Shown one piece after another: positions 837 to 47,560 of a stretch of 64,000 bases of DNA; the first letter of the stretch is position 1, and each line of letters opens with the position of its first letter. Made by a program: the position numbers and the translations under genes. The DNA is from Clostridia bacterium (GTDB lineage: Bacteria > Bacillota > Clostridia > Oscillospirales > Acutalibacteraceae), in contig JAFXBF010000007.1 in NCBI GenBank assembly GCA_017516745.1, forward strand, positions 46,079-110,078, written 5' to 3'. The notes beneath the pieces are model-generated. The model was not told where the DNA came from. It worked only from the letters and a program-made list of their open reading frames with translations, and ran no database searches.

Positions 837-849
837 GATATAATATTAA

Positions 850-886: not shown

Positions 887-916
887 AATGCAAAGTGCAA
901 AATGCAAAGTGTAAAA

Positions 917-955: not shown

Positions 956-976
956 TATTCATTAAATAGTTTTGTG

Positions 977-1052
977 GTAGGGACAATTCACGAATTGTCC
1001 GTATTAATGTGCATATCGCTTTTACGGCGGACAATTCGTGAATCGACCCTAC
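977..1052. repeat. MITE/REP-like element made of two inverted 24-nt units
   Basis: GTAGGGACAATTCACGAATTGTCC (977-1000) and the inverted GGACAATTCGTGAATCGACCCTAC (1029-1052). The same architecture recurs at 15805-15882. Confidence 0.7.
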
Positions 1053-1060
1053 AATATCAT

Positions 1061-2431: not shown

Positions 2432-2450
2432 TAATAAAATCTCCTTTTTA

Positions 2451-3314: not shown

Positions 3315-3356
3315 AGCTTAACCCCTCCTTAAGCACAAAAGGTATTTGCACCCGTT

Positions 3357-3725
3357 TTATAATGCCGGGCAAAGAGTACCGAGAGCAGACGGCTTTTCCT
3401 CATAAACTCTCTCCTCACCTGCAAACAGCCTTCTGTAATCCTCTGCTTGGGTGCACAGGCGTTGGTATTCCGCTGCGAGCACTTCCCTGCCCTTTTCGGT
3501 TAAGACATAGCTTCGCCGTCTGCCCTCTGCCTTGGTTTCCTTTATCATATCGGCAGACAAAAACTGCTCCAGCAGATTATAAAGCGTGCCAGAGCCGACC
3601 TTAACCCTGTCGTCGGTCATTGCGGAAACCTTGTCCATAATGTCAATTCCGCAGCATTCCTCTTTCAGGCAGAGGAGAATATAAAACATCTGCTCGGTAA
3701 GAGTCTGAAATTTTAAGCGTGGCAT
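3357..3725 (-). CDS. PadR-family transcriptional regulator
   Basis: 122 aa with a winged-helix signature (FYILLCL..GIDIMDKV....GSGTLYNLLEQF...R.YVLTEKGREVL). Confidence 0.85.
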   Translation of the reverse strand: MPRLKFQTLTEQMFYILLCLKEECCGIDIMDKVSAMTDDRVKVGSGTLYNLLEQFLSADMIKETKAEGRRRSYVLTEKGREVLAAEYQRLCTQAEDYRRLFAGEERVYEEKPSALGTLCPAL

Positions 3726-19006: not shown

Positions 19007-19142
19007 TTTAGTCACTCCTAATAAATATTTTGGGGATATGCTTTTACGGGTAGAATATAGCACACTTAAATTGCAGTGTCAACAACAATATTCGAAAAGA
19101 AAACAATTATTATTTCTTATTTCTTCTTTATTCTTTATTATT

Positions 19143-21329
19143 TCACACAATATAGTTGTGTGTTCCTGCGCCGACTTCGTATTCGCCGTCGGGAAGAGTT
19201 ACCGTTGCGGTACAGCCTTCGGGTACGGTGAAGGTATAAGCGGTTTTACCGTTTTCACGCTTCCACTCGCTCTTTACAAGGCCGTTGCGTGTGTCAACGC
19301 TTGCCTTTACCCAGTCAATGCGGCTGTCTGTATAGGGCTTGAAGAGAATGTGCTTATAGGCAGGGTTCTTTTCGTCAACCTTGATACCTGCCATATCGCC
19401 GTACATCCAGTCGGCAACGGCACCGTAGGCGTAGTGGTTGAAGGAGTTCATATCCGTGCTCCACATTGTGCCGTCCTCACGCATACCGTCCCAATGCTCC
19501 CAGATTGTCGTTGCACCCATTCTGACCGAGAAGAGCCATGACGGATATTCCTCACGCAGAATAAGGTCGTAAGCAGTTTTTACATAGCCGTTATCGGTAA
19601 GTGCGTGGAGAAGATACGGTGTGCCGACAAAGCCTGTTTTGAGGTGTCCGCACTCGGTTACAAGGTCATTAAGCTGTTTTGCAGTTTCGGCAATGTTATC
19701 GGAAATGCCAAAGTGTACGGCAAGGGTTGCGGCAGTCTGTGTTGCGTATTCAGGCTTTACTCTGCCGTTTTCCATAAACATATTACGGAAAGCGATGATT
19801 GAATTCTCACGCTTCGTCTTGTATTCACTTGCATCCTCACCGCAAAGCTCCATAGCCTTGATAAGAATTTCGCTTGAATAGATATAGTAAGCGGTTGCAA
19901 TAAGATCCTTGTTTGTACCGATGTCGCACTTGCCGACATCGCTTGCATCGAGGTTGAGCCAATCGCCGAAATGCCAGCTCTTGCACCAGATGCCGTCAAC
20001 GCTGCTGTATTCGACGTATTCAATATAATTCTTCATTGACTCGAGTGATTCGGCAATGAGGTCTTTATTTGCATAGGACAGATACATCTGCCACGGACAA
20101 ACCGTTACGGCATCAGCCCAGGCGGCAGAGGAATTTTCGTCAACATCGAAAATATCGGGAATTACGTGGGGGATTGTGCCCCAGGGTCTTTGCTCTGCTC
20201 TCAGGTCGGCAAGCCACTTGATGAAGAAGCGTTCAACATCGAAGTTGTAGGCAGCAGCCTTTACGAAAACCTGTGCATCACCCGTCCAGCCGAGTCTTTC
20301 GTCTCGCTGCGGACAGTCTGTGGGCACGTCGAGATAGTTGCCCTTCTGACCCCATATAACGTTGTGATAGAGCTTGTTGAGCATTTCGCTTGAGCACTCA
20401 AAGTGACCCGTGCGCTTTAATTCGGAATGAACAACTATAGCCGTGAAGTTTTCAAGTTTCACTTCATCGCTCCAGTTTTCGAGCTTTATGTAACGGAAGC
20501 CGAAGAAATCGAAATCGGGCTTGCAGATATGCTCCTCACCGTCACAGACAAAGCAAGCCTGTGCCTTTGCGGCACGGAGATTATCTCTGTAGAAGTTGCC
20601 TTCGGCATCGAGCACCTCACCGTGGTGAATAACAGCGGTTTCGCCCTTGTTGCCCTTGATTTTGAATTCAACATAACCCGTGAGATTCTGACCGAAGTCA
20701 ACAACGGTTTCACCCTTGGGCGTGATAATTATTTCCTTTGCGGGAAGTCTTTCCTGCTCAATAACCTTTTCGCCCTGACGGTCAAGAAGAATCTTATTGT
20801 TATGAGGGAATGCAACAGCCTTCATCGGCTCTGCATCAACAAAATTCGGGTCGTATGTATAGCCGTTGTAAAGGTCGGTTGAAATGAATTTACCGAACTC
20901 AGCCGTCCAGCTTGAATCGGTATAAATAACCTCGCTTGTGCCGTCGGCATATTCAAGGGTGAGGGCGGCAATAAGTGCCGTTTCACGCACGCCGAGGAAA
21001 TAGCCTGCGGCACGCTCGTTACCCGTAAAATATCTGCCCTTCCAGCCGGGGCCGACACCGATTGAAACTGTATTATTCTCTTTGAGCATAGCGGTTACAT
21101 CGTAGGTTTCGACCTGCAGACGCTTCTGGTAGGCAGTCCAGCCCGGTGCAAGGACATAGTCCCCCACTCTTTCGCCGTTGATGTCAACAACATATACGCC
21201 CAGTGCAGTTGCCTCAAGGCTTGCGCTGACAAGGTCTTTTTTCACCTCAAAGCTCTTTGTGTAGCGGATTTCACACTCCTTACAGAGCTTGGGGCTTTTA
21301 ATCCATTGTGCGTTGGTAATGTTTTTCAT
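19143..21329 (-). CDS. Alpha-L-rhamnosidase (GH78)
   Basis: 728 aa. The N-terminal rhamnosidase pattern (A.LEATALGVYVVDINGERVGDYVLAPGWT.Y..RLQ...YDVT) and the six-hairpin region (DCPQRDERLGWTGD) fit GH78. Confidence 0.9.
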   Translation of the reverse strand: MKNITNAQWIKSPKLCKECEIRYTKSFEVKKDLVSASLEATALGVYVVDINGERVGDYVLAPGWTAYQKRLQVETYDVTAMLKENNTVSIGVGPGWKGRYFTGNERAAGYFLGVRETALIAALTLEYADGTSEVIYTDSSWTAEFGKFISTDLYNGYTYDPNFVDAEPMKAVAFPHNNKILLDRQGEKVIEQERLPAKEIIITPKGETVVDFGQNLTGYVEFKIKGNKGETAVIHHGEVLDAEGNFYRDNLRAAKAQACFVCDGEEHICKPDFDFFGFRYIKLENWSDEVKLENFTAIVVHSELKRTGHFECSSEMLNKLYHNVIWGQKGNYLDVPTDCPQRDERLGWTGDAQVFVKAAAYNFDVERFFIKWLADLRAEQRPWGTIPHVIPDIFDVDENSSAAWADAVTVCPWQMYLSYANKDLIAESLESMKNYIEYVEYSSVDGIWCKSWHFGDWLNLDASDVGKCDIGTNKDLIATAYYIYSSEILIKAMELCGEDASEYKTKRENSIIAFRNMFMENGRVKPEYATQTAATLAVHFGISDNIAETAKQLNDLVTECGHLKTGFVGTPYLLHALTDNGYVKTAYDLILREEYPSWLFSVRMGATTIWEHWDGMREDGTMWSTDMNSFNHYAYGAVADWMYGDMAGIKVDEKNPAYKHILFKPYTDSRIDWVKASVDTRNGLVKSEWKRENGKTAYTFTVPEGCTATVTLPDGEYEVGAGTHNYIV

Positions 21330-24726: not shown

Positions 24727-24990
24727 ATGAAAGCTACGACAGTTGTTATAATCTTTGCCGCAGTATGCGTTCTTACAATGCTGACGGTAATGCTCAAAAG
24801 AAAGTGCCTTTTCAAGGGGCTTTTCGCCACGGTTTTCCAAGGCGTAGCCGCACTTTATGCGGTAAAGCTGATAGGGCTTGCGACGGGAATAAGCATAGCG
24901 GTAAACTGGTACACGCTCGGCACGGCGGCTGTTTTAGGCTCACCGGGTGTTGCGCTCATCCTTGCCGCAGAGGCTATATTTATGCGCTGA
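24727..24990 (+). CDS. bofA: Pro-sigma-K processing inhibitor BofA
   Basis: 87 aa with two hydrophobic helices; GLATGISIAVNWYTLGTAAVLGSPGV is BofA-like. Confidence 0.72.
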   Translation: MKATTVVIIFAAVCVLTMLTVMLKRKCLFKGLFATVFQGVAALYAVKLIGLATGISIAVNWYTLGTAAVLGSPGVALILAAEAIFMR

Positions 24991-27178
24991 TTACATATTC
25001 CTTATCTGCTTCAAGTGCACAATCTCTGATTTCGCCGTTGATTTCTACCTTGACTGTCTGTGCAGACTTTGAAACGAGTGCGCAGGAAATAACCTTACCG
25101 TCCTTGAAAGCGGCGGAAACTTCAATATCGCCTCTTGCCTTAAGGCCATTGAAAGAGCCCGAGAGGAAGGAAGCGGTTGCAGGAAGCAGGGAAATTACGC
25201 CCTCGTGGCTTTGCATAAGCATTTCACCTATGCCTGCCGCACCGCCGAAGTTGCCGTCAATCTGGAAGGGCGGATGAGTGTCGAAAAGGTTGGGCAGGGT
25301 TGAGCGTGTGAAAAGCAGCCTTATATGGTTATACGCCTCGTTGCCGTCACGCAATCTTGCAAAAAGGTTGATAAGCCATGCTCTGCTCCAGCCCGTGTGA
25401 CCGCCGCCGTTGGCAAGTCTGCGGTTGAGAGTAACTCTTATCGCCTTGTAAAGCTCGGGTGTATTTCTCGTAATCTGTGCAGAAGGATAAAGGCCGAAGG
25501 CGTGAGAAATGTGACGGTGTCCGGGGTCTTCCTCGTCGTAATCCTCAATCCATTCCATAAGCTGGCCGTGCTTGCCGACCTGCATAGGCGGAATTTTCAC
25601 AAGTGCGGCCTTTACCTTTTCAGCCGTTTCGGTTTCCATTCCGAGAAGCTTTTCGGTTTCAAGGTAGAATTCAAAGAGCCCTGTTACAATCTGTCTGTCC
25701 ATTGTGGGTGCCATGCACATTGTGACAGGCTTACCGTCCTCACCGATATATTCGTTTTCGGGTGAAGCGGAGGGACCTGTGAGAAGTCTGCCCTGAGAGT
25801 CTTCAACCATATAATCAAGGAAGAAATCAACACAGGCCTTGATGTATTCATAGGCTTCATTTTTAAGGAAGGCAAGGTCACGGGTGTAGAGGAAATGCTC
25901 CCACATATGGAAGGCAAGCCACGCACCGCCTACGGGCCAAAGACCCCATACACCGTCCGCAGGGCCGTTGAAGCCATAGATGTCACTAAGGTGGTGGGTA
26001 ACAGTACCGTTACAGCCGTAGTAATCCTGTGCCGCCTTTCTGCCGCCTTCAAGAAGATTAGTATTCATATAGTCAAACAACGGCTTTGTGCACTCGCTGA
26101 TATTCGCCTGTTCAGCCTGCCAGTAGTTCATTTGAAGATTGATATTGGTGTGGTAGTCCGCATTCCACGGGTTCTGCATTCTTTCGCCCCACACACCCTG
26201 GAGGTTTGCAGGAAGAGAACCGGGTCGGCTTGAGCCGACAAGCAAATATTTGCCGAACTGCCAGTAAAGTGACATCAGACCGAAGTCCGTTGCCTTATCG
26301 TCCTTCTTAAGTCTTTCAAGTCTTTTGTCAACGGGCAGCTTTTCAAGAGCTTCATCCGCCTCAAAGCATACATCACTGCGCTCCATAATTGAAGAGAAGC
26401 TCTTAATATGTTCAGCCTTTATTGCTTCGTAATCAAAATCTTTACTCAGCTTTTCTACGCAGGCTGTTCTGTAGTTTTTGTCAGTATTATCGGAAACAAT
26501 GTTTATGTAAATCACAGCGGTGCTTGCGTTTTCAACACGCAGGCTGTCTTTCTTTGCGGTAACCTCACCGTCGGTGTCAACCTTTGCCGCAACGCAGAAG
26601 GCGTGAGTTTTGTGTGCGGTATCACAGCAGGCAACAAGCTTGCTGCCGACTGCCGTTTTTTCGGTAACAAGGTCACGGTCGTAGGTAATACCAAAAGAAG
26701 AAGGTGCGGAGAAGCTGAATTTAATAACCATCAGCTTTTCCTCATAAGAAACAAAGCACTCCTCAACCGTTTCCACATCCTTTTTTGTGTAGCTGACGGT
26801 TGCAACGCCTTTATTGAGATTGAGGTCACGGCGGTAATTCTTCGGCTTTGATTTATCGTCAAACTCAACATTAAGTCTGCCTGCAACCTCAAAGGAAGCG
26901 ATAACATTGAAATCGTTTTCAAGGTTTTCCTCTGCCCACTTTGCCGCCTCAAAATTCTTGCCCTCGAGGAAGAGCGAACGGATATACGCAATTTTTTCTT
27001 TGAAATCACCTGCAGGCTTCATTTCGGTAGGCTCATCCCATACGGTTTCCTCGTTGAGAACAAAAAGCTCGCTGTCCGTTCTGCCGAAAACGCTCAAACC
27101 CATTGAGCCGTTGCCGAGGGGCGTACAATTTTCCCACTTATCCGCCGCATTTTCAAGATGAAGGATGTAATCTTTCAT
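24980..27178 (-). CDS. Alpha-L-fucosidase, GH95 family
   Basis: The N-terminal W.N..PLGNGSMG..VFG....E...LNEETVWD pattern is typical of GH95. 732 aa, no signal peptide. Confidence 0.85.
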   Translation of the reverse strand: MKDYILHLENAADKWENCTPLGNGSMGLSVFGRTDSELFVLNEETVWDEPTEMKPAGDFKEKIAYIRSLFLEGKNFEAAKWAEENLENDFNVIASFEVAGRLNVEFDDKSKPKNYRRDLNLNKGVATVSYTKKDVETVEECFVSYEEKLMVIKFSFSAPSSFGITYDRDLVTEKTAVGSKLVACCDTAHKTHAFCVAAKVDTDGEVTAKKDSLRVENASTAVIYINIVSDNTDKNYRTACVEKLSKDFDYEAIKAEHIKSFSSIMERSDVCFEADEALEKLPVDKRLERLKKDDKATDFGLMSLYWQFGKYLLVGSSRPGSLPANLQGVWGERMQNPWNADYHTNINLQMNYWQAEQANISECTKPLFDYMNTNLLEGGRKAAQDYYGCNGTVTHHLSDIYGFNGPADGVWGLWPVGGAWLAFHMWEHFLYTRDLAFLKNEAYEYIKACVDFFLDYMVEDSQGRLLTGPSASPENEYIGEDGKPVTMCMAPTMDRQIVTGLFEFYLETEKLLGMETETAEKVKAALVKIPPMQVGKHGQLMEWIEDYDEEDPGHRHISHAFGLYPSAQITRNTPELYKAIRVTLNRRLANGGGHTGWSRAWLINLFARLRDGNEAYNHIRLLFTRSTLPNLFDTHPPFQIDGNFGGAAGIGEMLMQSHEGVISLLPATASFLSGSFNGLKARGDIEVSAAFKDGKVISCALVSKSAQTVKVEINGEIRDCALEADKEYVISA

Positions 27179-27190
27179 ATCATAAACCTC

Positions 27191-28036
27191 TCAATAAATA
27201 ATTTCTTTTATTTGTTCAAGCACGCTGTAGGGAATTGCCATATTCCCCGTGCCCTTGCCGATTGAAATGTGGGGCTTCATTGCGGCGTGAAAATCCGTAC
27301 CGCCGCTTATTTTCAGCCCGTACCTTTTTGCCATAGCCTGAAACTTTTCCTGCATTTCTTCGTCGTAATCAGTATAATAACCTTCCAATCCGTCAAGCCC
27401 GTATGATTTGAGCTCTTCAAGATATTTTTCCAACCTCTCATCGGAAATTTTAATGAGGTGAGGGTGAGCAAGAAAAGCAACACCGCCTGCGGAATGTATG
27501 GCTTCAATTGCGGTTTTCGCCTCTAACTTCTGGTTGCCGAAATAGGCAGGCTTACCCGAAGAAAGATATTTTTCAAACGCTTCCTTAACGGAAGAAACAT
27601 AGCCCTTGTTCATCATAACACGGGCAAAATGCGCCCTGCCGACTATGCCGCCCGGTGCAAGCGAGGCGGCCTCTTCAAGTGCGACATCGAAGCCGAGGTC
27701 TTTAAGAAGCTTTGCTGTCATTACATTGCGCTCAATCCGCTTTTCGATAATCTCGCCGAGAATTTCTTTTAATCTGGGGTTATGAATATCAATAAAGTAG
27801 CCGAGAATATGTGTTTCCGTTTGGGATTTAACGGAAAATTCAATTGCGGGCACAACCTCAACGCCGTACCTTTCCCCTGCTCTGACTGCTTCTTCAACAC
27901 CGCTGACGGTGTCGTGGTCGGTCAGCGCTATTGCACAGATTCCATTTTCTGCTGCGTGCTTTACCAGTTCGGTCGGTGTCATTGACCCGTCCGAACAGGT
28001 TGAATGGGTGTGCAAATCAATTAATTTGTTTTTCAT
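27191..28036 (-). CDS. PHP-domain phosphoesterase (TrpH/YciV-like)
   Basis: IDLHTHSTCSDGSMTP....AIALTDHDT at the N-terminus. Confidence 0.85.
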   Translation of the reverse strand: MKNKLIDLHTHSTCSDGSMTPTELVKHAAENGICAIALTDHDTVSGVEEAVRAGERYGVEVVPAIEFSVKSQTETHILGYFIDIHNPRLKEILGEIIEKRIERNVMTAKLLKDLGFDVALEEAASLAPGGIVGRAHFARVMMNKGYVSSVKEAFEKYLSSGKPAYFGNQKLEAKTAIEAIHSAGGVAFLAHPHLIKISDERLEKYLEELKSYGLDGLEGYYTDYDEEMQEKFQAMAKRYGLKISGGTDFHAAMKPHISIGKGTGNMAIPYSVLEQIKEIIY

Positions 28037-28159
28037 AAAAACCCACCTTTTTCAAATAAATATACTATCAAAAATATATAGAATTTGCAATACCAATTTG
28101 AATATTCCCGACAAAAACTTTAGCGCTTGAAAGCGATAAAGTTATTTTTGCAAAAAGTA

Positions 28160-28188
28160 TTGACATTCAAAAATCACGGGTGTATAAT
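28160..28188 (+). promoter_or_regulatory. Consensus extended -10 promoter of the aro operon
   Basis: TTGACA (28160-28165), a 17-nt spacer ending in TG, then TATAAT (28183-28188). Confidence 0.7.
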
Positions 28189-28221
28189 GCAGACAATCTT
28201 TGATAAGGGAGACGCAGTATT

Positions 28222-28290
28222 ATGCTTTGCAAAACAAATGCAACTGCATACAGCTTTTTTTACTTTTACTTTTATTTTAATGAGAAATAA
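28222..28290 (+). CDS. Candidate leader peptide MLCKTNATAYSFFYFYFYFNEK
   Basis: SD AAGGGAG (28205-28211) lies 10 nt before the ATG. In this 22-codon ORF, 9 of 10 consecutive codons (28249-28278) are Phe or Tyr. Confidence 0.6.
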   Translation: MLCKTNATAYSFFYFYFYFNEK

Positions 28291-28351
28291 ATAGTAGAAG
28301 TGATTTTTGCTGCGCCTTAATTCAAAGGCATATCATAAAAGCGATTTTTAA

Positions 28352-28393
28352 AGAGCTTTGCAGTAAATTCACTGCAAGGCTCTTGAATTTTTT
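28352..28393 (+). terminator. Leader terminator (attenuator) upstream of aroF
   Basis: 13-bp stem AGAGCTTTGCAGT / ACTGCAAGGCTCT with one G-U pair and loop AAATTC, followed by TGAATTTTTTATT. It ends 20 nt before ATG 28413. Confidence 0.75.
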
Positions 28394-28412
28394 ATTGAAA
28401 GGTGTTTTAAAA

Positions 28413-29423
28413 ATGGTAGTAGTACTTAAAAGCAACGCAACACAAAATCAGCTCGACAACCTTATAAGCTGGCTTGAAGAACAAAAGGTTCTTGTTCATA
28501 TTTCAAAGGGTGAATACCAGACCATTCTCGGCCTTGTAGGCAACACAACAGCCATTGATACTGACCTTATAGAGGGTCTTGATATAGTTGAAAGCGTAAA
28601 AAGAATTTCCGACCCGTTCAAGAGCGCAAACAGAAAGTTCCACCCTGATGACACGGTAGTTGACTGCTCGGGCGTAAAAATCGGCGGCGGTGAATTTGCA
28701 ATTATCGCAGGCCCTTGCTCTGTTGAAAGCGAAGCACAGATACTCGAGGTTGCAACAAAAGTTAAGGCAGGCGGTGCAACGCTCCTTCGAGGCGGCGCTT
28801 TCAAGCCGAGAACCTCCCCCTACGATTTCCAGGGTCTTCACGCTCAGGGTATTGAGCTGCTGCTTGAAGCAAAGGAAAAGACGGGTATGCCGATAGTAAC
28901 TGAAATTATGAGCGCACATCACCTTCCCTTATTTGAAAAGGTTGACGTTATTCAGGTCGGTGCACGCAATATGCAGAATTTTGAGCTTCTCAAGGAGCTG
29001 GGCAGAACAAACAAGCCCATACTTCTTAAAAGAGGACTTGCAAACACGCTTAAAGAGCTGCTTATGAGTGCCGAATACATTATGGCAGGCGGTAACGAGA
29101 ACATCATTCTCTGTGAAAGAGGTATCCGTACCTTTGAAACCTACACGAGAAACACGCTTGACCTTTCCGCCGTACCGATGCTCAAGGAGCTCACGCATCT
29201 GCCCGTAGTAATTGACCCCAGCCACGCAAGCGGTATTGCAAGGCTGGTAAAGCCAATGGCAATGGCTGCCGCAGCAGCAGGTGCAGACGGACTTATGATA
29301 GAGGTACACAACGACCCGCAGCACGCTTTGTGTGACGGACCCCAGTCACTCACACCCGAACAGTTTGAGGACGTTGCAAGGCGTGTATTCGCAATACGCA
29401 AAGCAGTTGCAGAGCTTGACTGA
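28413..29423 (+). CDS. aroF: 3-deoxy-7-phosphoheptulonate (DAHP) synthase, type I-beta with an N-terminal regulatory domain
   Basis: 336 aa. An N-terminal ~70-aa ferredoxin-like domain (VVVLKSNATQNQLDNL) precedes the catalytic core (IAGPCSVES..., GA..LRGGAFKPRTSPY.FQG). Confidence 0.92.
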   Translation: MVVVLKSNATQNQLDNLISWLEEQKVLVHISKGEYQTILGLVGNTTAIDTDLIEGLDIVESVKRISDPFKSANRKFHPDDTVVDCSGVKIGGGEFAIIAGPCSVESEAQILEVATKVKAGGATLLRGGAFKPRTSPYDFQGLHAQGIELLLEAKEKTGMPIVTEIMSAHHLPLFEKVDVIQVGARNMQNFELLKELGRTNKPILLKRGLANTLKELLMSAEYIMAGGNENIILCERGIRTFETYTRNTLDLSAVPMLKELTHLPVVIDPSHASGIARLVKPMAMAAAAAGADGLMIEVHNDPQHALCDGPQSLTPEQFEDVARRVFAIRKAVAELD

Positions 29424-29459
29424 TAAATTAACCGATAAACAGCAAAGGAGAAAAAAGCA

Positions 29460-30302
29460 ATGAAAATAGGTATATGCGGCCTCGGTCTTATAGGAGGCTC
29501 ACTTGCAAAGGCATTTAAAAGAGCAAACGAAACCGTATTCGGCTACGACATAGACACCCCCGTTACCGACTATGCGGTAATGGCAGGAATTACCGACGGC
29601 GTGCTTGACGGCAAAACAATAGCTGAATGTGATTATATTTTCGTTGCACTTTACCCCAACGCTGTGGTAGAATATATTGATAAGATTTCCGAAAGGGTAA
29701 AAAAGGGAGCAACGGTGGTTGACCTTTGCGGTACAAAGGCAACTGTCTGTCCACCCTGTTTCAGAATAGCCGAAGAAAACGGATTCAACTTTGTGGGCGG
29801 CCACCCGATGGCAGGCACACAGTTTTCGGGGCTGAAAAATTCCAAGGAAACACTTTTCGACGGCGCAACGATGATACTTGTACCAAAGCCCAACGAGGAT
29901 ATGCATTTACTGGCAGACCTTCGTGACGTACTTTTGAAAGCCGGCTTCGGCACGGTTACGGTATCCACACCCGAGGTGCACGACGTAAATATCGCCTACA
30001 CCTCACAGCTTGCTCACGTTGTTTCAAACGCCTACGTCAAAAGCCCCCGTTCAAAGGTGCACAAGGGCTTTTCTGCAGGAAGCTACAAGGATCTGACCCG
30101 TGTTGCGTGGCTGAACGAAAATATGTGGACACAGCTTTTCCTTGAAAATTCCGAAAACCTGATTACGGAAATTGACCTGATGATAGAAAACTTAAAGAAA
30201 TACAGCGATGCTTTAAAGGAAAAAGACGAAGAAAAAATCAGAGACCTGCTGCGTGAAGGCAGGCTTATGAAGGAAGCGGTTGACAGTGACGAAAAGAATT
30301 GA
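29460..30302 (+). CDS. tyrA: Prephenate dehydrogenase
   Basis: Rossmann motif IGICGLGLIGGSLAK and ...GGHPMAG. Confidence 0.9.
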   Translation: MKIGICGLGLIGGSLAKAFKRANETVFGYDIDTPVTDYAVMAGITDGVLDGKTIAECDYIFVALYPNAVVEYIDKISERVKKGATVVDLCGTKATVCPPCFRIAEENGFNFVGGHPMAGTQFSGLKNSKETLFDGATMILVPKPNEDMHLLADLRDVLLKAGFGTVTVSTPEVHDVNIAYTSQLAHVVSNAYVKSPRSKVHKGFSAGSYKDLTRVAWLNENMWTQLFLENSENLITEIDLMIENLKKYSDALKEKDEEKIRDLLREGRLMKEAVDSDEKN

Positions 30303-31338
30303 AGTTAACGCAGGCAAGCCCTACAGCGTAAAAATCGGCAAAGGTCTGCTTGACAAAACGGGTGAAGAGGCAAAGGCACTCGGGCTTGACGGCAAGGCAC
30401 TCATAATAAGCGACGACAATGTTGCCGCACTTTATATTGAAAAAGTGAGTGCTTCACTTAAAGAAGCTGGCTTTGAGGTATTCAGCTTCGTAATTCCTCA
30501 CGGCGAAGGCTCAAAATCCGCCGAAAACCTGATTGCAATACTCGAATTTGCCGCAGAAAATTCATTCAGCCGCACGGACACGTTTTTTGCCCTGGGCGGC
30601 GGTGTAGTCGGCGACCTTTGCGGCTTTGCAGCTTCCGTTTATATGAGAGGCGCAAATTTCGTTCAGCTTCCCACTACCCTGCTTGCGGCGGTTGATTCCT
30701 CCGTAGGCGGTAAAACGGCAATAGACCTTCAAGCCGGCAAAAACCTTGCAGGTGCCTTTTATCAGCCGAAGTTCGTGCTATGCGACACAGACACCTTTGA
30801 CACCCTACCCGATGAGGAATTTTCAAACGGTATGGCAGAGGTTATCAAGTACGGTATGTTCTGCGACGGTGAATTTCTTGATATTCTTACAGAAAACAAC
30901 ACGGATATTGAAAGCATAATTGCACGCTGTGTTCAGATTAAGGCAAAGGTTGTTGAGGCAGACGAGTTTGACAAAGGAGAAAGAATGTTCCTTAATTTCG
31001 GTCATACGGTTGCACACGCCGTTGAGAATTTAAGCAGCTATACCACTCCGCACGGAAGTGCAGTTGCAATAGGTATGGCGGTAATCACAAAAGCCGCAAT
31101 TGCTATGGGTAAATGTGAAAACGAAGCTTTGGAAATTCTGATTGAACTATTAAAAAAATACAAGCTCCCCTTTGAATGTCCCTACGGCGTTGATGAGGTT
31201 TTTGAGGTTACGCTAAAGGATAAGAAAAATGCCCACGGTAAAATAACACTCGTTATCCCCACGGGCAAAGGCGAAAGCGTACTGCAAAAATGCGATTATA
31301 ATGAACTCAAAGAAATTATTACACTCGGATTGAAGTGA
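30280..31338 (+). CDS. aroB: 3-dehydroquinate synthase
   Basis: ALGGGVVGDLCGFAAS, ...VQLPTTLLA.VDSSVGGKTAI. The start is uncertain (TTG 30280 or GTG 30286) and overlaps the tyrA 3' end. Confidence 0.9.
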   Translation: MTVTKRIEVNAGKPYSVKIGKGLLDKTGEEAKALGLDGKALIISDDNVAALYIEKVSASLKEAGFEVFSFVIPHGEGSKSAENLIAILEFAAENSFSRTDTFFALGGGVVGDLCGFAASVYMRGANFVQLPTTLLAAVDSSVGGKTAIDLQAGKNLAGAFYQPKFVLCDTDTFDTLPDEEFSNGMAEVIKYGMFCDGEFLDILTENNTDIESIIARCVQIKAKVVEADEFDKGERMFLNFGHTVAHAVENLSSYTTPHGSAVAIGMAVITKAAIAMGKCENEALEILIELLKKYKLPFECPYGVDEVFEVTLKDKKNAHGKITLVIPTGKGESVLQKCDYNELKEIITLGLK

Positions 31339-31344
31339 TAAGAT

Positions 31345-32553
31345 ATGAAAGCAATTATAACTCCCTCTGCTCTCTGCGGTGAGGTAAAAGCGCCTGCTTC
31401 AAAATCGGTTGCACACCGTGCGCTAATCTGTGCAGCGTTGAGCGACAGGGCAACAAAAATTGATTGTTCCACCACCTCTGCCGATATTGAAGCCACGGCT
31501 GACTGCTTAAGACAGCTTGGTGCAAGAATCACAAAAACAGATACGGGCTTTTTAGTTGACCCGATAACCGACTCGACTGAAAACGCCGTGCTCAACTGCG
31601 GTGAGAGCGGTTCAACACTCCGTTTTATGTTACCCGTTGCCGCTTCACTCGGTAAAGCTGTTTCACTTTACGGAAGCGGCAGATTGCCCGAAAGACCCAT
31701 AGGTGAGCTGTGCGAAGCCCTGCGCTCACACGGGTGCATTACAAGTGGCGACACCATTCCCTTGACGGTAAGCGGAAAGCTCGAAGCAGGCGACTATGTT
31801 ATTGACGGCAGTGTCAGCTCACAGTTCATAAGCGGTCTGCTGCTCAGCTTGCCACAGACCCACGCAGAATCAACGGTTACGGTAATTGGTGAAATTCAGT
31901 CAAAGCCATATATTAATATGACTTTATCCGTACTTTCCGACTTTGGAATCAAGACGGAATTCAAGGGGAACAAGATAAAAATATTCCCAAACAACGGCTT
32001 TATTTCTCCCGAAAAATACACAGTTGAGGGCGATTGGTCGAACGGAGCGTTCTTCATCTGTGCCGATGCAATTGACGGCAACGATGTAAAGTGTTCCAAC
32101 TTGACAGATAAATCAATACAAGGTGACAAGGCCGTTGCCGAAATTACAAAAAAATACGGCTCGGATATAAGAATTGATGTCGGCAATATACCCGACCTTG
32201 TGCCCGTGCTTGCGGTTACGGCGTGTTTTTTCAAGGCAACAACCGTATTTTATAACGCCGCAAGGCTGAAAATCAAAGAAAGCGACCGTTTGCTTTCAAC
32301 ACAAAAACTCATAACCGACCTTGGCGGCTGTGCCGAGGCGACAGATGACACACTGACCGTTTACGGCAACGGAAAATTAAGCGGCGGAACGGTTGATTCG
32401 TTCAACGACCACCGCATAGTTATGGCGGCGGCAATTGCGGCAGCAGCGTGCGAAAAAGAAACGGTAATCAACGGCTGTGAGGCCGTAAACAAATCCTACC
32501 CCACTTTTTTTGAAGAGTATAAAGCTTTGGGCGGTAAAGTAAAATTAGATTAA
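31345..32553 (+). CDS. aroA: 3-phosphoshikimate 1-carboxyvinyltransferase (EPSP synthase)
   Basis: PASKSVAHRALI.AAL, ...GESGSTLRF, ...DHRIVMAAAIAA. Confidence 0.92.
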   Translation: MKAIITPSALCGEVKAPASKSVAHRALICAALSDRATKIDCSTTSADIEATADCLRQLGARITKTDTGFLVDPITDSTENAVLNCGESGSTLRFMLPVAASLGKAVSLYGSGRLPERPIGELCEALRSHGCITSGDTIPLTVSGKLEAGDYVIDGSVSSQFISGLLLSLPQTHAESTVTVIGEIQSKPYINMTLSVLSDFGIKTEFKGNKIKIFPNNGFISPEKYTVEGDWSNGAFFICADAIDGNDVKCSNLTDKSIQGDKAVAEITKKYGSDIRIDVGNIPDLVPVLAVTACFFKATTVFYNAARLKIKESDRLLSTQKLITDLGGCAEATDDTLTVYGNGKLSGGTVDSFNDHRIVMAAAIAAAACEKETVINGCEAVNKSYPTFFEEYKALGGKVKLD

Positions 32554-32565
32554 TGGAGATACATT

Positions 32566-33654
32566 ATGGAATCCTCTACAGGTGAAAACATTAAAATAAC
32601 AATATTCGGTGAGTCACACTCTCCCGAAATCGGCGTTACAATTGACGGATTTCCCGTCGGTTTTGAGATTGACGAAGAAAGGCTTGCCGCATTTATGGCA
32701 AGAAGAGCCCCCGGCAGAGATAAATTTTCCACCCAGCGCAAAGAAGTGGACAAGGTTGTATTTCTGTCGGGATTAACGGATAGCAAGACTGACGGCACAA
32801 CCATTCGTGCGGTTATTTACAACAGCAACCAGCGCTCAAAGGATTATTCCGAGCTGCGTGATAAGCCCCGACCGGGTCACGCAGATTATACGGCGAGGAT
32901 GAAATACGGCGAAGAGTACGATGTTTCCGGCGGCGGACATTTTTCCGGCAGGCTGACTGCACCGCTTTGCATTGCAGGCGGTATATGTATGCAATGGCTT
33001 GAAAGCAAGGGTATCACCATAGGCGCACATATAGCAAGCATCCACGGCATTAACGACAAAAAATTTGACAGCGTAAATATAACAGCCGAAGAGTTGACCG
33101 CTCTTAAGGAAAAGCCCTTCACCTGCATTGATGACGGGGCGGCTGAAAAAATGAAGGCTGAAATTCTTGCCGCAAAGGATGACTGCGATTCGGTAGGCGG
33201 TACGGCTGAATGTGCCGTTATCGGCTTGCCGACAGGCTTGGGCGGCCCTATGTTCAGCGGAATTGAAAGCAAGATTTCGCTTAACGTTTTCGGAATTCCT
33301 GCCGTAAAGGCCATTGAGTTCGGCGCAGGCTTTGAAAGCACCCGACTTTTCGGAAGCGAAAACAACGACGAATTTTACTTTGACGAAAACGGGAACGTAA
33401 AAACACGCACAAACAACTGCGGCGGTATACTCGGCGGTATTTCCAACGCCATGCCGCTTATATTCACGGCAGCGTTCAAGCCCACACCCTCAATTTACAA
33501 AACGCAGAACACGGTTTCACTTGAAAATAAAGAAAACACAACGCTTAACATAGTCGGCAGACACGACCCGTGCATTGTTCAGCGTGCTGTACCCGTAGTC
33601 GAAGCGGCAGCGGCGCTGACAATTGCCGATATGATGATTGGAGAGAACAAATAA
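32566..33654 (+). CDS. aroC: Chorismate synthase
   Basis: FGESHSPEIGVTIDG.P, ...RPGHADYT, ...GRHDPC.V.RAVPV.EA. Confidence 0.95.
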   Translation: MESSTGENIKITIFGESHSPEIGVTIDGFPVGFEIDEERLAAFMARRAPGRDKFSTQRKEVDKVVFLSGLTDSKTDGTTIRAVIYNSNQRSKDYSELRDKPRPGHADYTARMKYGEEYDVSGGGHFSGRLTAPLCIAGGICMQWLESKGITIGAHIASIHGINDKKFDSVNITAEELTALKEKPFTCIDDGAAEKMKAEILAAKDDCDSVGGTAECAVIGLPTGLGGPMFSGIESKISLNVFGIPAVKAIEFGAGFESTRLFGSENNDEFYFDENGNVKTRTNNCGGILGGISNAMPLIFTAAFKPTPSIYKTQNTVSLENKENTTLNIVGRHDPCIVQRAVPVVEAAAALTIADMMIGENK

Positions 33655-33655
33655 T

Positions 33656-34798
33656 ATGGATCTGCAGCAGATAAGACAGGATATTGACAATATTGACACA
33701 CAGCTTGTTGAGCTTTTCAGGCAGAGAATGGAAAAAGCGGCAAGCGTTGCCGAATACAAAAAACAAAACTCAATGAGCATTTACGACCCTGCAAGAGAAC
33801 GTGCGCTGTTGCAGCGTGTGTCCGACCTTGCAGGTGAAGAACACGAGGCGAACACGAGGCTGATGTTTTCGCTACTGATGGATCTTTCAAAGTCCTATCA
33901 GGCTAAGCTCCTTCTGCCCGAATCTAAATACGAAAAAATAATTACCTCTGCATTATCAGAAACCTCTCTCCTTTTCCCCGAGAGAGCAACCGTTGCCTGC
34001 CAGGGCACGGAGGGTGCCTATGCTCAGGTTGCGTGCAACAAGCTTTTTGCTCTTCCCAATATTATGTATAACAATTCGTTCGAAGGCGTTTTCAACGCGG
34101 TTGAATCCGGGCTTTGCAAATACGGCGTACTGCCGATTGAAAACAGCACGGCAGGCTCGGTCAACAGCATTTACGACTTGATGATGAAGCACAGCTTTTA
34201 TATCGTGAGAAGCACGAGAGTGCAGATTAACCACTGCCTGCTTGTGAAGCCCGGCACGAAATTCGAGGATATAAAGGAAATTATTTCCCACGAGCAGGCA
34301 CTCAGCCAGTCGAGCGATTTTCTGGGCTCCCTTGACGGTGTTAAAACAACCGCCTACGCCAACACGGCGCTTGCCGCACAGGCTGTTGCGCAAAGCGACA
34401 GAGGCGATATTGCGGCCCTCGGCTCCTCGGAATGTGCCGCTCTTTACGGCTTGACCGTGCTCAAAAGAGCCGTGCAGAATAAGGGCAGTAATTACACGCG
34501 CTTTATCTGCATTTCAAAAAAGCCCGAAATTTATCCCGGCGCGGACAGAACGAGCCTTATGCTCATCCTTCCCCATAAGCCGGGCTCGCTTTACAAAATT
34601 ATTTCCCGTTTCTATGCACACGGTATCAATATGACAAAGCTTGAAAGCCGTCCCATACCGGGCAGCGACTTTGAGTTTATGTTCTATTTTGACGTAGGCA
34701 CCTCGGTTTACTCCCCTGCCCTCAAGCAGCTTATATGTGAGCTTGAAACGGAGCTTGACAACTTCACCTACCTTGGCAGTTACTCAGAAATCGTATAA
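33656..34798 (+). CDS. pheA: Bifunctional chorismate mutase / prephenate dehydratase (P-protein)
   Basis: An N-terminal CM type 2 helix (LQQIRQDIDNIDTQLVELFRQRM) is followed by PDT and ACT domains (...ENSTAGSV..., ESRP). The start ATG 33656 lies after GGAGAG. Confidence 0.9.
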   Translation: MDLQQIRQDIDNIDTQLVELFRQRMEKAASVAEYKKQNSMSIYDPARERALLQRVSDLAGEEHEANTRLMFSLLMDLSKSYQAKLLLPESKYEKIITSALSETSLLFPERATVACQGTEGAYAQVACNKLFALPNIMYNNSFEGVFNAVESGLCKYGVLPIENSTAGSVNSIYDLMMKHSFYIVRSTRVQINHCLLVKPGTKFEDIKEIISHEQALSQSSDFLGSLDGVKTTAYANTALAAQAVAQSDRGDIAALGSSECAALYGLTVLKRAVQNKGSNYTRFICISKKPEIYPGADRTSLMLILPHKPGSLYKIISRFYAHGINMTKLESRPIPGSDFEFMFYFDVGTSVYSPALKQLICELETELDNFTYLGSYSEIV

Positions 34799-34814
34799 GA
34801 AAAGAGACTAAACC

Positions 34815-36044
34815 ATGCGTTTCGGACTACTCGGCCGCAAGCTCGGCCACAGCTACTCGCCGCAGATACATTCACTTTTAGGCGATTACGAATATCCGCT
34901 CTACGAAAAAGAGCCCGATGAAATAGCAGAATTTCTCACAACCAGCGGCTTTGACGGAATGAATGTCACCATACCCTACAAGGAAACCGTTATGTCCTAT
35001 ATGTCGGGGCTTTCCGATTCGGCGAAGAAAATCGGCTCGGTAAACACGGTTACACGCCTGCCCGACGGCACGCTTTACGGCGACAACACGGATTATTACG
35101 GCTTTTCCTTTCTGCTTGAAAGCGCAGGCTTTGATGTCAAAGACAAAAAGGTTGTCGTGCTCGGCAACGGCGGTGCGAGCAAAACAGTTGTCTGCGTCTG
35201 CCGTGACAAGGTTGCAAGGGAAATCACCGTTATTTCACGCAGGAGTGAAACGGACAACTACGAAAATATCACAAAGCACGCCGATGCGGATTACATTATC
35301 AACACAACACCCGTTGGTATGTACCCGAACAACGGCGAAAGCCCTGTTGATTTGTCAATTTTCAAAAGCTGCAAGGGCGTTGCCGACCTCATTTACAACC
35401 CTGCCAAAACACGGTTTATTCTTGACGCCGAAGCACTCGGAATACCTGCGGTAAACGGACTTGTTATGCTCTGCGCCCAGGCAGTTAAAGCGGCAGAAAG
35501 TTTTATTAAAACAGATTTTGACAAAAACAAAACGCTTGAAATACTCTCCGCACTCGAAAAGCAGATGAAAAACATTGTGCTTGTGGGTATGCCCGGCTGC
35601 GGTAAATCCACGGCAGGCAGGCTGCTGGCACAAAAGCTGAACAGAGATTTTGTTGACACCGACAGCCTTATAGTTGAAAACGAAAAAATGCCCATACCCG
35701 AAATTTTCGAGAAATACGGCGAGGAGTATTTCCGCAACGCCGAAGCAAAAGCGGTTGCCGAAGCAGGGAAAATGAGCGGTAAAATAATCGCAACGGGCGG
35801 CGGTGCAATACTGCGTGAGGAAAACAAAACGGCGCTCAGACAAAACGCCATTGTTGTGCACTTAAACCATGATATTTCATCACTTGCCATTGACGGCAGA
35901 CCCTTGAGCAAAGCAAACAAGCTCCAGGAGATGTACAACGCCCGTCTGCCGCATTACAAAGCGGTAAGCGATATGTCGGTTGAGGTGGATTCCGACCCCG
36001 AAATAACAGTTGAACGAATACTGAAAGGACTTGAAGAAAAATGA
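34815..36044 (+). CDS. aroE-aroK: Fused shikimate dehydrogenase (AroE) and shikimate kinase (AroK)
   Basis: The N-terminal part carries GHSYSPQIH...NVTIPYK (AroE). From about residue 251 comes MKNIVLVGMPGCGKST...DTD (AroK Walker A), in the same frame with no stop between. Confidence 0.9.
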   Translation: MRFGLLGRKLGHSYSPQIHSLLGDYEYPLYEKEPDEIAEFLTTSGFDGMNVTIPYKETVMSYMSGLSDSAKKIGSVNTVTRLPDGTLYGDNTDYYGFSFLLESAGFDVKDKKVVVLGNGGASKTVVCVCRDKVAREITVISRRSETDNYENITKHADADYIINTTPVGMYPNNGESPVDLSIFKSCKGVADLIYNPAKTRFILDAEALGIPAVNGLVMLCAQAVKAAESFIKTDFDKNKTLEILSALEKQMKNIVLVGMPGCGKSTAGRLLAQKLNRDFVDTDSLIVENEKMPIPEIFEKYGEEYFRNAEAKAVAEAGKMSGKIIATGGGAILREENKTALRQNAIVVHLNHDISSLAIDGRPLSKANKLQEMYNARLPHYKAVSDMSVEVDSDPEITVERILKGLEEK

Positions 36045-36466
36045 AAATACTTGTTATAAACGGTCCTAATTTAAATATGCTTGGTATAAGAGAGCCCGAA
36101 ATATACGGCAGTAAAACCTATGCGGATTTATGCGGTATGATATCAAGTTACTGCGAAAAAAGCCAAATTGAGGCCCAGTTTTACCAGTCCAACCACGAGG
36201 GCTGTCTTGTAGATAAAATTCAGGAAGCCTACGGAAAGGTTGACGGAATAGTAATCAACCCCGGCGCATATACGCACACAAGTGTCGCCTTGCTCGATGC
36301 AGTCAAGGCTGTCGGCATTCCCACAGTTGAGGTGCACATTTCCGACCCCGACGAGAGAGAGGAATTCCGCAAGATTTCTTACATACGTGCCGCCTGTGTC
36401 GCAACGGTAAAAGGCAAGGGCTTTGACGGATACCTTGAAGCAGTGGATATATTAAACAGAATATAG
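36041..36466 (+). CDS. aroQ: Type II 3-dehydroquinate dehydratase
   Basis: ILVINGPNLNMLGIREPEIYG, ...QSNHEG..., INPGAYTHTS. Confidence 0.93.
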   Translation: MKILVINGPNLNMLGIREPEIYGSKTYADLCGMISSYCEKSQIEAQFYQSNHEGCLVDKIQEAYGKVDGIVINPGAYTHTSVALLDAVKAVGIPTVEVHISDPDEREEFRKISYIRAACVATVKGKGFDGYLEAVDILNRI

Positions 36467-36508
36467 AAAAGAATAACCCGACCTTGGAAGCTCCGAGGTC
36501 GGGTTGTT

Positions 36509-36714
36509 AAATTGGAGTATGTAGGGGCGGCCTTTGTGTCGTCCGTGGTCAAAACAAGATGCCGTTTTACTTGCCTCCCTCTGACGAGGGAGGTGGGTTT
36601 TGCGTTGGCAAAACTCGGAGGGAGAGAAATAAAATATTGAAACAGCGTTATTATTAATCTCTCCCTCAGTCAAAATCGCTTTGCGATTTCGACAGCTCCC
36701 TCGTCAGAGGGAGC
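36509..36714. repeat. Palindrome-dense spacer (several REP-like hairpins)
   Basis: A copy of AAATTGGAGTATGTAGGGGCGGCCTTTGTGTCGTCCGTG; CCTCCCTCTGACGAGGGAGG (36574-36593); GAGGGAGAGA / TCTCTCCCTC (36618-36627 / 36657-36666); AAATCGCTTTGCGATTT; GCTCCCTCGTCAGAGGGAGC (36695-36714). Confidence 0.55.
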
Positions 36715-36760
36715 CAAATATAATAGCATTTAAACATTTCGGCAAACCGCAATTTGTATT

Positions 36761-44247: not shown

Positions 44248-44322
44248 GCCTCCTTAGTTCAATGGATAGAATAAGCCCCTCCTAAGGGCTAGATATCGGT
44301 TCGATCCCGGTAGGGGGTGCCA
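44248..44322 (+). tRNA. tRNA-Arg (anticodon CCT)
   Basis: Manual cloverleaf: acceptor GCCTCCT/AGGGGGT (two G-U pairs), D arm GTTC-AATGGATA-GAAT, anticodon arm AGCCC-CTCCTAA-GGGCT, T arm ATCGG-TTCGATC-CCGGT, discriminator G and encoded CCA. Length 75 nt. Confidence 0.88.
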
Positions 44323-47169: not shown

Positions 47170-47560
47170 AAGTCACTCACATAGGACTTTATTTCTGATG
47201 AGTAGCTACGGTAGCAGGTACGCCTTGATTTCCGAAAGCGGAAAGAGCGATAACCCCTGCACGATTATCGGATTGCAACCGATATGGCGATGACAGTCAG
47301 AATGATAATGATACTTCTCTACGGAGCTGGCGGAGAACCCGGCAGAGGTGAGATTCCTATGATACGGTTTAGCAAACTGTAACCTATGTGTTTCCCATAA
47401 AGCAAAAGCTATGCAGGGGTGTCGAGGACAAATACTGCATTTAACATAAGACCGATTCGCCAAGAACGGGTTTCGGTCTATTACATAGCCGTTCAATTAA
47501 CATTGTCGGCTATCTTCAAAATGAAAGGAGAGATGGGAATGTATATTCTCGATGGACTTT
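47170..47560 (+). other. ~390-nt non-coding region with candidate secondary structure (RNA, ssDNA promoter, sso or oriT)
   Basis: No convincing ORF on either strand. Complementary segments include TTCCG/CGGAA (47230-47243), ATCGG/CCGAT (47267-47283), AGACCGA/TCGGTCT (47449-47479) and a long-range ACCCCTGCA/TGCAGGGGT pair (47253-47261 / 47412-47420). Confidence 0.35.

Follow-up and report, generated by a model that had tools for sequence, protein, structure and literature searches.

Ribosome-mediated transcription attenuation is a known mechanism class, represented by pheL-pheA of Escherichia coli and likewise by trpL and hisL, in which a short promoter-proximal open reading frame (ORF) carries a run of codons for the end product of the operon. 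In the pheL-pheA leader regions 1 and 2 form an anti-antiterminator, regions 2 and 3 an antiterminator, and regions 3 and 4 a terminator followed by a U-run, and the stop codon is positioned so that a ribosome that has not stalled blocks region 2. Here we describe an element with the same layout upstream of the aroF gene in a 64-kb stretch of DNA (hereafter the window) from a Clostridia bacterium of the Acutalibacteraceae (contig JAFXBF010000007.1). As judged from sequence comparison and modelled folding, the element is very probably a four-region ribosome-mediated transcription attenuator for which charged tRNA-Phe and tRNA-Tyr are the signals. The Clostridia sequence family to which it belongs is new to Rfam and, as far as searched, to the literature.

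The Clostridia element is set apart from pheL-pheA by the lack of sequence or covariance-model similarity, no Rfam leader family being matched at E ≤ 10, and by its host, a member of the Clostridia. Two amino acids would be sensed equally, the operon under control comprises the common pathway together with the Phe and Tyr branches instead of pheA alone, and a long A-U-rich hairpin has the regulatory codons as one of its strands. The antiterminator does not span the entire 5' arm of the terminator but takes its top and loop together with the initial bases of the 3' arm.

The closest functional analogue, and one with experimental support, is aroR of Corynebacterium glutamicum, where a Phe-Tyr-Phe leader lies directly upstream of the DAHP synthase gene aroF and stalling under Phe limitation relieves attenuation, Tyr supply reportedly being without effect (PMC11802643, citing Neshat et al. 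2014). This system belongs to the Actinobacteria and has three regulatory residues as opposed to 6-9 in the Clostridia element; in this comparison, which is by function only, an independent origin of the two appears likely. The closest computational analogue is the uORFC-13-1 motif upstream of aroF in Acholeplasma, a candidate upstream ORF with promoter, ribosome-binding site, start codon and Phe-coding U-run followed by an intrinsic terminator, for which a mechanism based on ribosome speed was proposed (Brewer et al. 2021, PMC8632094). Like the element described here it has a Gram-positive-lineage host and was found only computationally. It is set apart by its description, since its 24 representatives are restricted to Acholeplasma and unassigned environmental sequences and contain "at least one" Phe codon (PMC8632094), and nothing in Rfam 15 matches the Clostridia elements.

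In Bacillota, Lactococcus has a leu/phe-leader motif. Leader-peptide attenuators for His are known from the Bacillus cereus group, Peptostreptococcaceae and Erysipelotrichales (PMC2965389, PMC9413887), and a Leu-rich attenuator peptide is known for ilv-leu of Staphylococcus aureus (PMC5794164). These earlier leaders, which include computational predictions for relatives of Clostridioides difficile, share with our element the classical ribosome-mediated attenuation within the phylum; they differ in amino acid specificity, operons and sequences, and none concerns aroF or a mixed Phe/Tyr run. In C. difficile itself premature termination in the aroF 5' untranslated region was detected by RNA-seq and assigned to an unknown class without homology to known riboregulators (Fuchs et al. 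2021, PMC8237595). Compared by description only, this event may belong to the same family. Our literature search found no description of an aroF leader family with Phe/Tyr codons in Clostridia; most subscription journals were outside this search, which makes it weak evidence of novelty.

Materials and Methods

The anatomy of the site was read directly from the window sequence. Related loci were collected by an AroF protein scan, retaining one genome per species and the most similar aroF, which yielded 80 aroF loci. The covariance model R1 was built from 23 species, leaving out the window and its near-twin L001. Loci were counted as carriers of the four-region design if they were matched by R1 or were found by a script searching for ORF plus terminator yet missed by R1, the latter having diverged and often Tyr-dominated leaders. 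The duplex energies of the antiterminator, the truncated folds and the leader ORF counts were obtained from 63 loci, i.e., 62 relatives and the window.

For modelling of the switch, transcripts were ended past the terminator loop and the first 4 nucleotides (nt) of the 3' arm, i.e., before the 3' arm is complete. An alignment-free duplex permutation test was judged to be a better measure of the antiterminator than counts in a fixed register. Occurrences independent of aroF were searched by a metagenome-wide exact-pattern scan for the Phe/Tyr run and the core of region 2. The parts, their conservation, the covariation of the P1 hairpin and the terminator, the co-variation between each region 2 and the terminator of the same locus, and the conservation of ORF frame and Shine-Dalgarno sequence (SD) were computed; from these we infer where transcription starts, that the ribosome stalls, in which kinetic order the RNA folds, and that the operon responds to Phe and Tyr.

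Leader ORF and Regulatory Codons

On the forward strand a sigma-70-type promoter (28160-28188) is formed by the -35 box TTGACA (28160-28165), a 17-nt spacer and the -10 box TATAAT (28183-28188), and is the only 12/12 consensus match within 27000-37500. The TG noted in the spacer by an earlier model-generated annotation of the window (hereafter the sequence-only reading) is present and directly adjoins TATAAT (GTGTATAAT); the register is therefore not TGnTATAAT, and the promoter scan returned "no" for an extended -10 element. Transcription probably starts near 28195. The leader SD AAGGGAG (28205-28211) lies 10 nt 5' of the ATG at 28222, which is located 34 nt past the -10 box, so that the short ORF is promoter-proximal and 5' of the first structural gene. 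The leader ORF (28222-28290) consists of 22 codons and the stop codon UAA at 28288 (MLCKTNATAYSFFYFYFYFNEK), and nine out of ten consecutive codons (Y S F F Y F Y F Y F, 28249-28278) specify Phe or Tyr. Direct reading thus bore out the promoter, SD, ORF and codon run of the sequence-only reading.

This run is proposed to be the site at which ribosomes stall when Phe-tRNA or Tyr-tRNA is scarce. It is the single site in the six frames of the window where at least eight Phe or Tyr codons occur among ten, and nine among ten were reached in none of 100 first-order Markov randomizations of the window, which argues that the run is not an artefact of base composition.

A second site enriched in Phe and Tyr codons at 19115 (+), with seven codons out of ten, was dismissed; it is antisense and intergenic between two minus-strand genes. 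The 51-codon ORF at this site (19076-19231, +) was judged to be a by-product of A/T-rich intergenic sequence.

Distribution and Conservation in Related Clostridia

The 80 loci mostly belong to Oscillospirales and Lachnospiraceae, with some Peptostreptococcales and Christensenellales, and stem from gut and rumen. The nearest relative, L001, is an Acutalibacteraceae metagenome-assembled genome (MAG) with 97% AroF identity. A small ORF rich in Phe and Tyr codons was present upstream of aroF in about 65 of the 80 loci and was then followed in nearly all cases by a strong hairpin and a U-run; conservation of the ORF, which the sequence-only reading had proposed to examine, therefore extends to relatives that keep the terminator. 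R1 matched 56 of the 80 aroF loci, each time immediately upstream of aroF, and the four-region design as a whole was carried by 67 of them. Peptostreptococcales carriers were L039 and L053 (Emergencia) and L076 (Anaerovoracaceae). Among the carriers available in culture are Hominicoprocola fusiformis CLA-AA-H269 (L014), Angelakisella massiliensis Marseille-P3217 (L058) and Pseudoflavonifractor sp. AF19-9AC (L065). The sequence-only reading had called a peptide-leader attenuator unusual for Firmicutes, which is true against the textbook picture of Bacillus; within this clade the leader is the rule.

In the window R1 had one sense-strand match (28216-28389, +; 83.1 bits, E = 3.1e-15) that covered model positions 1-163 of 163, and the sole other match at E < 0.1 was the terminator on the opposite strand (30.5 bits).

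Alignment on the Phe/Tyr run revealed a common plan. SD and ATG are followed by 3-14 codons, the box UUUGCAGCnGAA, translated as F-A-A-E, and the run UAYUUUUACUUUUACUUU; after a short loop come the sequence AAAGUAAAAGU-GAUUUGUGCUGCAA, a variable spacer, and a terminator whose loop and upper 5' arm are conserved (YGCAGUGAAAUC...). In the window the stretch between region 2 and the terminator is 28314-28350; in the family the median distance from the beginning of the antiterminator strand to the terminator is 54 nt. The leader ORF of the window leaves the box GAUUUUUGCUGC (28302-28313) untranslated and the longer ORFs of other loci read it as D-L/F-C-C, which indicates that it is conserved at the RNA level.

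Tyr-dominated leaders missed by R1 (RYAYYYVLYG, GYYYYYVL and GFYYYVLF) occur upstream of aroF in L016, a Faecalibacterium MAG, in L044, a MAG labelled Lachnospiraceae, and in L072, an Aristaeellaceae MAG. They are located about 60-150 nt before locus position 3001, have GC-rich terminators and belong to higher-GC relatives. These leaders could be a Tyr-biased variant of the same attenuator design.

Predicted Mutually Exclusive Structures of the Leader RNA

Three mutually exclusive pairings can be drawn for the window, namely the P1 hairpin (28251-28278/28284-28312), the antiterminator (28299-28313/28360-28373) and the terminator (28351-28384). P1, the anti-antiterminator hairpin, combines region 1 (28251-28278), comprising CAGC (28251-28254) and the Phe/Tyr codons 28260-28278, with region 2, the switch strand (28284-28313), where the family alignments show the conserved box GUGAUUUGUGCUGC. 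The codons 28260-28278 pair with 28284-28303 and CAGC with GCUG (28309-28312), giving -20.9 kcal/mol. Region 3 (28355-28373) consists of the upper 5' arm of the terminator, its loop and the first bases of its 3' arm. It pairs with region 2 through AGUGA (28299-28303) with UCACU (28369-28373) and UUUGCUGC (28306-28313) with GCAGUAAA (28360-28367), and possibly through an additional helix between GCUUU (28355-28359) and AAGGC (28325-28329). This antiterminator is the minimum free energy fold of 28292-28375 (-24.1 kcal/mol), where the Phe/Tyr codons are unavailable. If the codons are free (28249-28375), the P1 fold, which leaves the terminator top free, reaches -35.5 kcal/mol as compared to -31.3 kcal/mol with the antiterminator forced.

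The search for a competing structure, which the sequence-only reading had recommended, thus identified an antiterminator, and its conserved strand (28299-28313) is neither of the two candidates offered there. GCCTT (28314-28318) engages in no more than a local hairpin, with AAGGC (28325-28329), and L001, at 97% identity, has GCCAA in its place; GCTTTGCA (28224-28231) lies in the first ORF codons, outside every conserved helix.

Two further pairings were dropped. ACUGCA..AGCUUUU (28243-28259) paired with the terminator 5' arm in some masked folds; this segment would be under or behind the stalled ribosome and the pairing is without family support. CGCAGUA (28213-28219) can pair with UGCUGCG (28308-28314), and this pairing is broken in L001 (CACAGUA).

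In the 59-row R1 alignment, 85.6% of the cells were paired in the state combining P1 and terminator, compared to 37-47% when the partners were slid by 1-3 columns. Compensatory changes were found in 29 of the 32 pairs of P1 and terminator, and the covariation score of 0.466 (0.205 in shuffles) was attained by none of 500 shuffles. The terminator had compensatory changes at all 13 modelled pairs among 57 family members, and an independent MAFFT alignment gave the same picture of covariation. In the P1 core, codon changes between Phe and Tyr (UUU<->UAU) are offset by AAA<->AUA in region 2 (column pair UA:13, AU:6), from which it follows that the run is under a double constraint, as coding sequence and as one strand of a helix.

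Complementarity of the 3' half of region 2 to the terminator top (upper 5' arm, loop and first 3'-arm bases) was seen by eye and then with RNAduplex, and it persists among sequences that differ greatly. Examples are GAUUUGUGCUGC with GCUGCACAAAUC in L013 (11 of 12 pairs), AAGGUGUAUUUUGCU with GGCAAAAUACACCUG in L076 and AAUACGGUUAUUUU with AAGAUGACCGUAUU in L057. Between region 2 and the terminator top of the same locus the duplex energy averaged -17.6 kcal/mol; with region 2 shuffled it was -10.3 kcal/mol, and region 2 re-paired with the terminators of other loci gave -12.2 +/- 0.37 kcal/mol, a value of -17.6 kcal/mol being reached in none of 5000 permutations (p < 2e-4). In a fixed register 75% and 69.5% of the cells were paired, compared to 28-58% in slid registers, and the covariation score exceeded that of all 500 shuffles.

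In the truncated transcripts a mean of 6.6 pairs between region 2 and the terminator was expected in the ribosome-free state; the mean was 13.3 for a ribosome stalled in mid-run and 4.7 for one placed on the leader stop codon. In the latter position the ribosome covers part of the antiterminator strand, or has passed it during translation, at 60 loci out of 63; its footprint at UAA 28288 of the window extends to about 28301, the start of this strand. The modelled effects of ribosome position on pairing are exactly those of the classical trp/phe/his logic.

Probable Translation of the Leader ORF

Across the family 65 SD-preceded ATG codons are in frame with the Phe/Tyr run, compared to 5 in the other two frames, and 59 of the 63 loci have an open in-frame ATG with SD. 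The leaders vary in length from 14 to 47 amino acids, and the run alone is conserved, both termini varying freely. Family totals amount to 223 Phe and 220 Tyr codons, with Trp codons almost absent, which matches an operon that contains pheA and tyrA and no trp genes.

Terminator and Downstream Operon

The intrinsic terminator (28351-28393, +) has a 14-base pair (bp) stem (28351-28364/28371-28384) with a stem energy of -20.8 to -21.9 kcal/mol and a 6-nt loop (28365-28370), followed by GAA and a run of six U (28388-28393) that ends 20 nt before the aroF ATG at 28413. The hairpin, T-run and distance to aroF described by the sequence-only reading hold; its stem length of 13 bp is to be corrected to 14 bp, and GAA separates the stem from the U-run. 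The terminator is nearly palindromic and has an A-tract upstream and a U-tract downstream, which accounts for weak antisense R1 matches (approximately 30 bits) in the window (28346-28505, -) and in L043 (1977-2082, -); in principle it could terminate transcription in both directions.

Downstream follows an operon of eight ORFs on the forward strand, for which Pfam assignments agree with the aromatic operon of the sequence-only reading, including pheA and tyrA and hence regulatory codons that match the end products. The aroF gene (28413-29423), preceded by the SD AAAGGTG (28398-28404) read from the sequence, encodes a DAHP synthase with an N-terminal ferredoxin-like regulatory domain (PF00793, 3e-78; PF18152, 9e-21). 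It is followed by tyrA for prephenate dehydrogenase (29460-30302), aroB for DHQ synthase (30280-31338), aroA for EPSP synthase (31345-32553), aroC for chorismate synthase (32566-33654), pheA for a chorismate mutase-prephenate dehydratase-ACT protein (33638-34798), an aroE-aroK fusion for shikimate dehydrogenase-kinase (34815-36044), and aroQ for type II dehydroquinase (36041-36466). Intergenic gaps are 36 nt or less, or the genes overlap. The operon covers the common pathway plus pheA and tyrA, and Pfam identified no trp genes in it. A terminator-like hairpin of 13 bp with 7 GC pairs (36569-36598, +), about 100 nt past aroQ, is the probable end of the operon.

The aroE-aroK fusion is one ORF of 409 amino acids with a shikimate dehydrogenase N-terminal domain and a complete shikimate kinase domain; the NAD(P)-binding part of the dehydrogenase had a weak score.

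Proposed Mechanism and Alternative Explanations

Transcription would start at about 28195 and a ribosome would load on the leader ORF (28222-28290). With Phe and Tyr plentiful, the ribosome would reach the UAA at 28288, where its footprint would cover the start of region 2, and after its release region 2 (28284-28313) would fold back on the Phe/Tyr codons and CAGC (28251-28278). The terminator (28351-28384) and the U-run would then be free to fold, and RNA polymerase would stop 20 nt before aroF. With either amino acid scarce, the ribosome would stall within 28249-28278 and hold region 1, leaving region 2 single-stranded. Region 2 could pair with 28360-28373 once this sequence is transcribed and would occupy the terminator from its upper 5' arm across the loop into the first bases of the 3' arm; the hairpin could not nucleate, and polymerase would enter aroF-tyrA-aroB-aroA-aroC-pheA-aroEK-aroQ. 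Ribosome-mediated attenuation, as suggested by the sequence-only reading, is supported by the conserved ORF, SD and frame, the covarying terminator, the mutually exclusive antiterminator and the absence of any Rfam match at the site.

Several results weigh against this interpretation. The evidence for the host and for the whole family is computational throughout. The window is a peripheral family member; in the register of R1 it has 3 non-canonical pairs among the 8 of outer P1, where only the shifted CAGC:GCUG pairing remains. The margin by which P1 leads in the local folds of the window (4.2 kcal/mol) is modest, and with the whole 5' leader of the window included the expected antiterminator pairs numbered 14.3 with the leader free, 18.8 with the ribosome stalled and 16.3 with the ribosome at the stop codon, which is again a modest discrimination. 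The U-run is set off by 3 nt (GAA) from the terminator stem. In the fixed register the count of double-changed antiterminator pairs did not exceed that of shuffles and covariation was weaker than in the other helices; the support obtained in this way is only moderate because register and loop length differ among loci. At equilibrium the full-length leader always kept the terminator, with or without ribosome mask. The attenuator model is consequently a kinetic one that depends on co-transcriptional folding, and we ascribe the equilibrium result to the method, do not take it as an argument against a switch, and used the truncated co-transcriptional folds instead. Finally, Bacillota have been classed phylum-wide as organisms with "runaway" transcription, where RNA polymerase outpaces the ribosome (PMC13323073, PMC7858274), and this would make ribosome-timed attenuation harder unless the polymerase pauses.

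Among the alternatives considered, an RNA-binding protein acting in the manner of TRAP or PyrR might in its effector-loaded form read the UAC/UUU triplets or P1 and govern the terminator, with the ORF being incidental. The Phe/Tyr run is indeed also a short triplet repeat and a strand of a conserved hairpin, so constraint on the RNA could maintain part of it, and protein-mediated attenuation is the textbook control of aromatic genes in Bacillus (TRAP at the trp operon). However, a binding site needs neither an SD and ATG kept in frame with the run and a frame kept open, nor a stop codon placed where the terminating ribosome touches region 2, nor codons that vary freely outside the run while the frame stays, and we regard control by such a protein as very unlikely. 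The same observations bear on the possibility that the small ORF encodes a functional hydrophobic micro-protein and that the hairpin merely is an insulating or stabilizing terminator between two transcription units. The reading frame can indeed be translated and is maintained as such across the family, and aromatic-rich peptides could insert into membranes; however, only the run is conserved among leaders of such different lengths and termini, residues past the run are conserved at the RNA level whether translated or not (GAUUUUUGCUGC), and the 20-nt gap before aroF is too small for a second promoter. Taken together, the frame, SD and codon evidence from the sequence comparison argues against both a protein-binding repeat and a micro-protein, the latter being extremely unlikely.

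An Rfam search to exclude a T-box had been suggested by the sequence-only reading. No Rfam 15 family matched the site at the gathering score, and hits at E ≤ 10 within 28000-28500 were noise only, none of them a T-box or a leader for Phe, Trp, His or Leu; likewise no family matched the aroF leaders of the 20 best relatives at the gathering score. The Rfam leader families, which we take to be those for Phe, Trp, His, Leu and Thr and the Lactococcus leu/phe leader, did not match the element. Besides this, the leader comprises about 200 nt of simple hairpins without a conserved multi-helix aptamer. Although T-boxes are the commonest control of amino acid genes in Bacillota (PMC2494555) and a terminator is present in the 5' leader as they would have it, a T-box or another tRNA- or ligand-binding riboswitch governing this terminator has an almost negligible probability. 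It is also improbable, to a high degree, that leader translation acts post-transcriptionally, on the stability of the mRNA or on aroF initiation through re-initiation or masking of the SD. In some attenuators a helix that sequesters the SD replaces the terminator (PMC9413887), and leader genes near structural genes have been proposed to raise translation by re-initiation (PMC4833913). In this family, however, it is a GC-rich stem with U-run that is conserved and covaries, the aroF SD (28398-28404) is outside every conserved helix, and the leader stop codon is 123 nt upstream of the aroF start, too distant for re-initiation.

Occurrences Beyond aroF and Implications

The exact-pattern scan, which was not conditioned on aroF, returned 96 stretches, of which 79 had aroF within 450 nt downstream, nine were on contigs too short to judge, and eight were classified as other. 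The latter include L154, which precedes a more divergent aroF, and two full-length R1 matches before genes other than aroF, in L101 and L129.

The L101 element (3313-3460, -; R1 115.8 bits) is located upstream of genes for a PaaK-like AMP-binding ligase and an IorA-like oxidoreductase with thiamine pyrophosphate and 4Fe-4S (ferredoxin) domains; the downstream ORFs are at 1790-3109 (-) and 48-1790 (-). A second promoter-like site (TTGACA-17-TACAAT) lies between terminator and gene. These genes could form a route from phenylacetate via phenylpyruvate to Phe. The L129 element (1624-1780, -; R1 61.8 bits), with the leader MKRLDSVLSSFYYYFYFYADAKK, is directly upstream of an ORF (658-1656, -) for an ATP-binding cassette (ABC) substrate-binding lipoprotein of family PF04392, and the transporter may be an aromatic amino acid uptake system under the same signal. 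It is plausible that both sets of genes serve aromatic supply, which would fit a Phe/Tyr signal and suggests a portable module.

Going one step further, we tentatively consider it possible, though somewhat more doubtful than not, that the element in the window represents a portable Phe/Tyr attenuator module which is so far undescribed and occurs throughout this clade of gut and rumen Clostridia. Such a module would define a small aromatic-supply regulon of aroF operons, an arylpyruvate route of the PaaK/indolepyruvate-oxidoreductase type and PF04392 ABC uptake, and its prevalence would imply that the position of the ribosome reliably controls RNA polymerase about 100 nt downstream in a class of Bacillota. 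If so, there would be local synchrony of transcription and translation in a phylum that is classed wholesale as "runaway." Ribosome-timed attenuation needs synchrony of ribosome and polymerase, and the family could serve as a natural reporter of coupling or pausing in Clostridia (PMC13323073, PMC7858274).

The attenuator would provide a concrete regulatory mechanism for the aromatic amino acid operon in many gut and rumen Clostridia that are uncultured or have been little studied, with leader-peptide attenuation as the prevailing solution for aroF in this clade and not a curiosity, and with the Phe and Tyr signals merged in one peptide. Its leaders are at present unannotated or would be called hypothetical small proteins, and the family, which is missing from Rfam, is ready for use as a covariance model. 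The L101 and L129 occurrences could furthermore help to assign aromatic-supply functions to PaaK/IorA-like and ABC binding-protein genes.

Neighboring Genes and Other RNA Features of the Window

Upstream of the attenuator the neighboring genes (24980-28036, -) are divergently oriented and encode a PHP-domain protein (27191-28036) and a GH95 glycoside hydrolase (24980-27178). A very A/T-rich gap of 123 nt separates the start codon of the PHP-domain gene from the attenuator promoter. Elsewhere in the window, a tRNA gene (44248-44319, +) was recognized by the Rfam tRNA model with 55.9 bits. A full-length match to the pemK RNA motif of Rfam (47305-47362, +) scored 72.1 bits against a gathering score of 34.8; this motif is a cis-regulatory one linked to PemK-type toxin genes and bears no relation to the attenuator.

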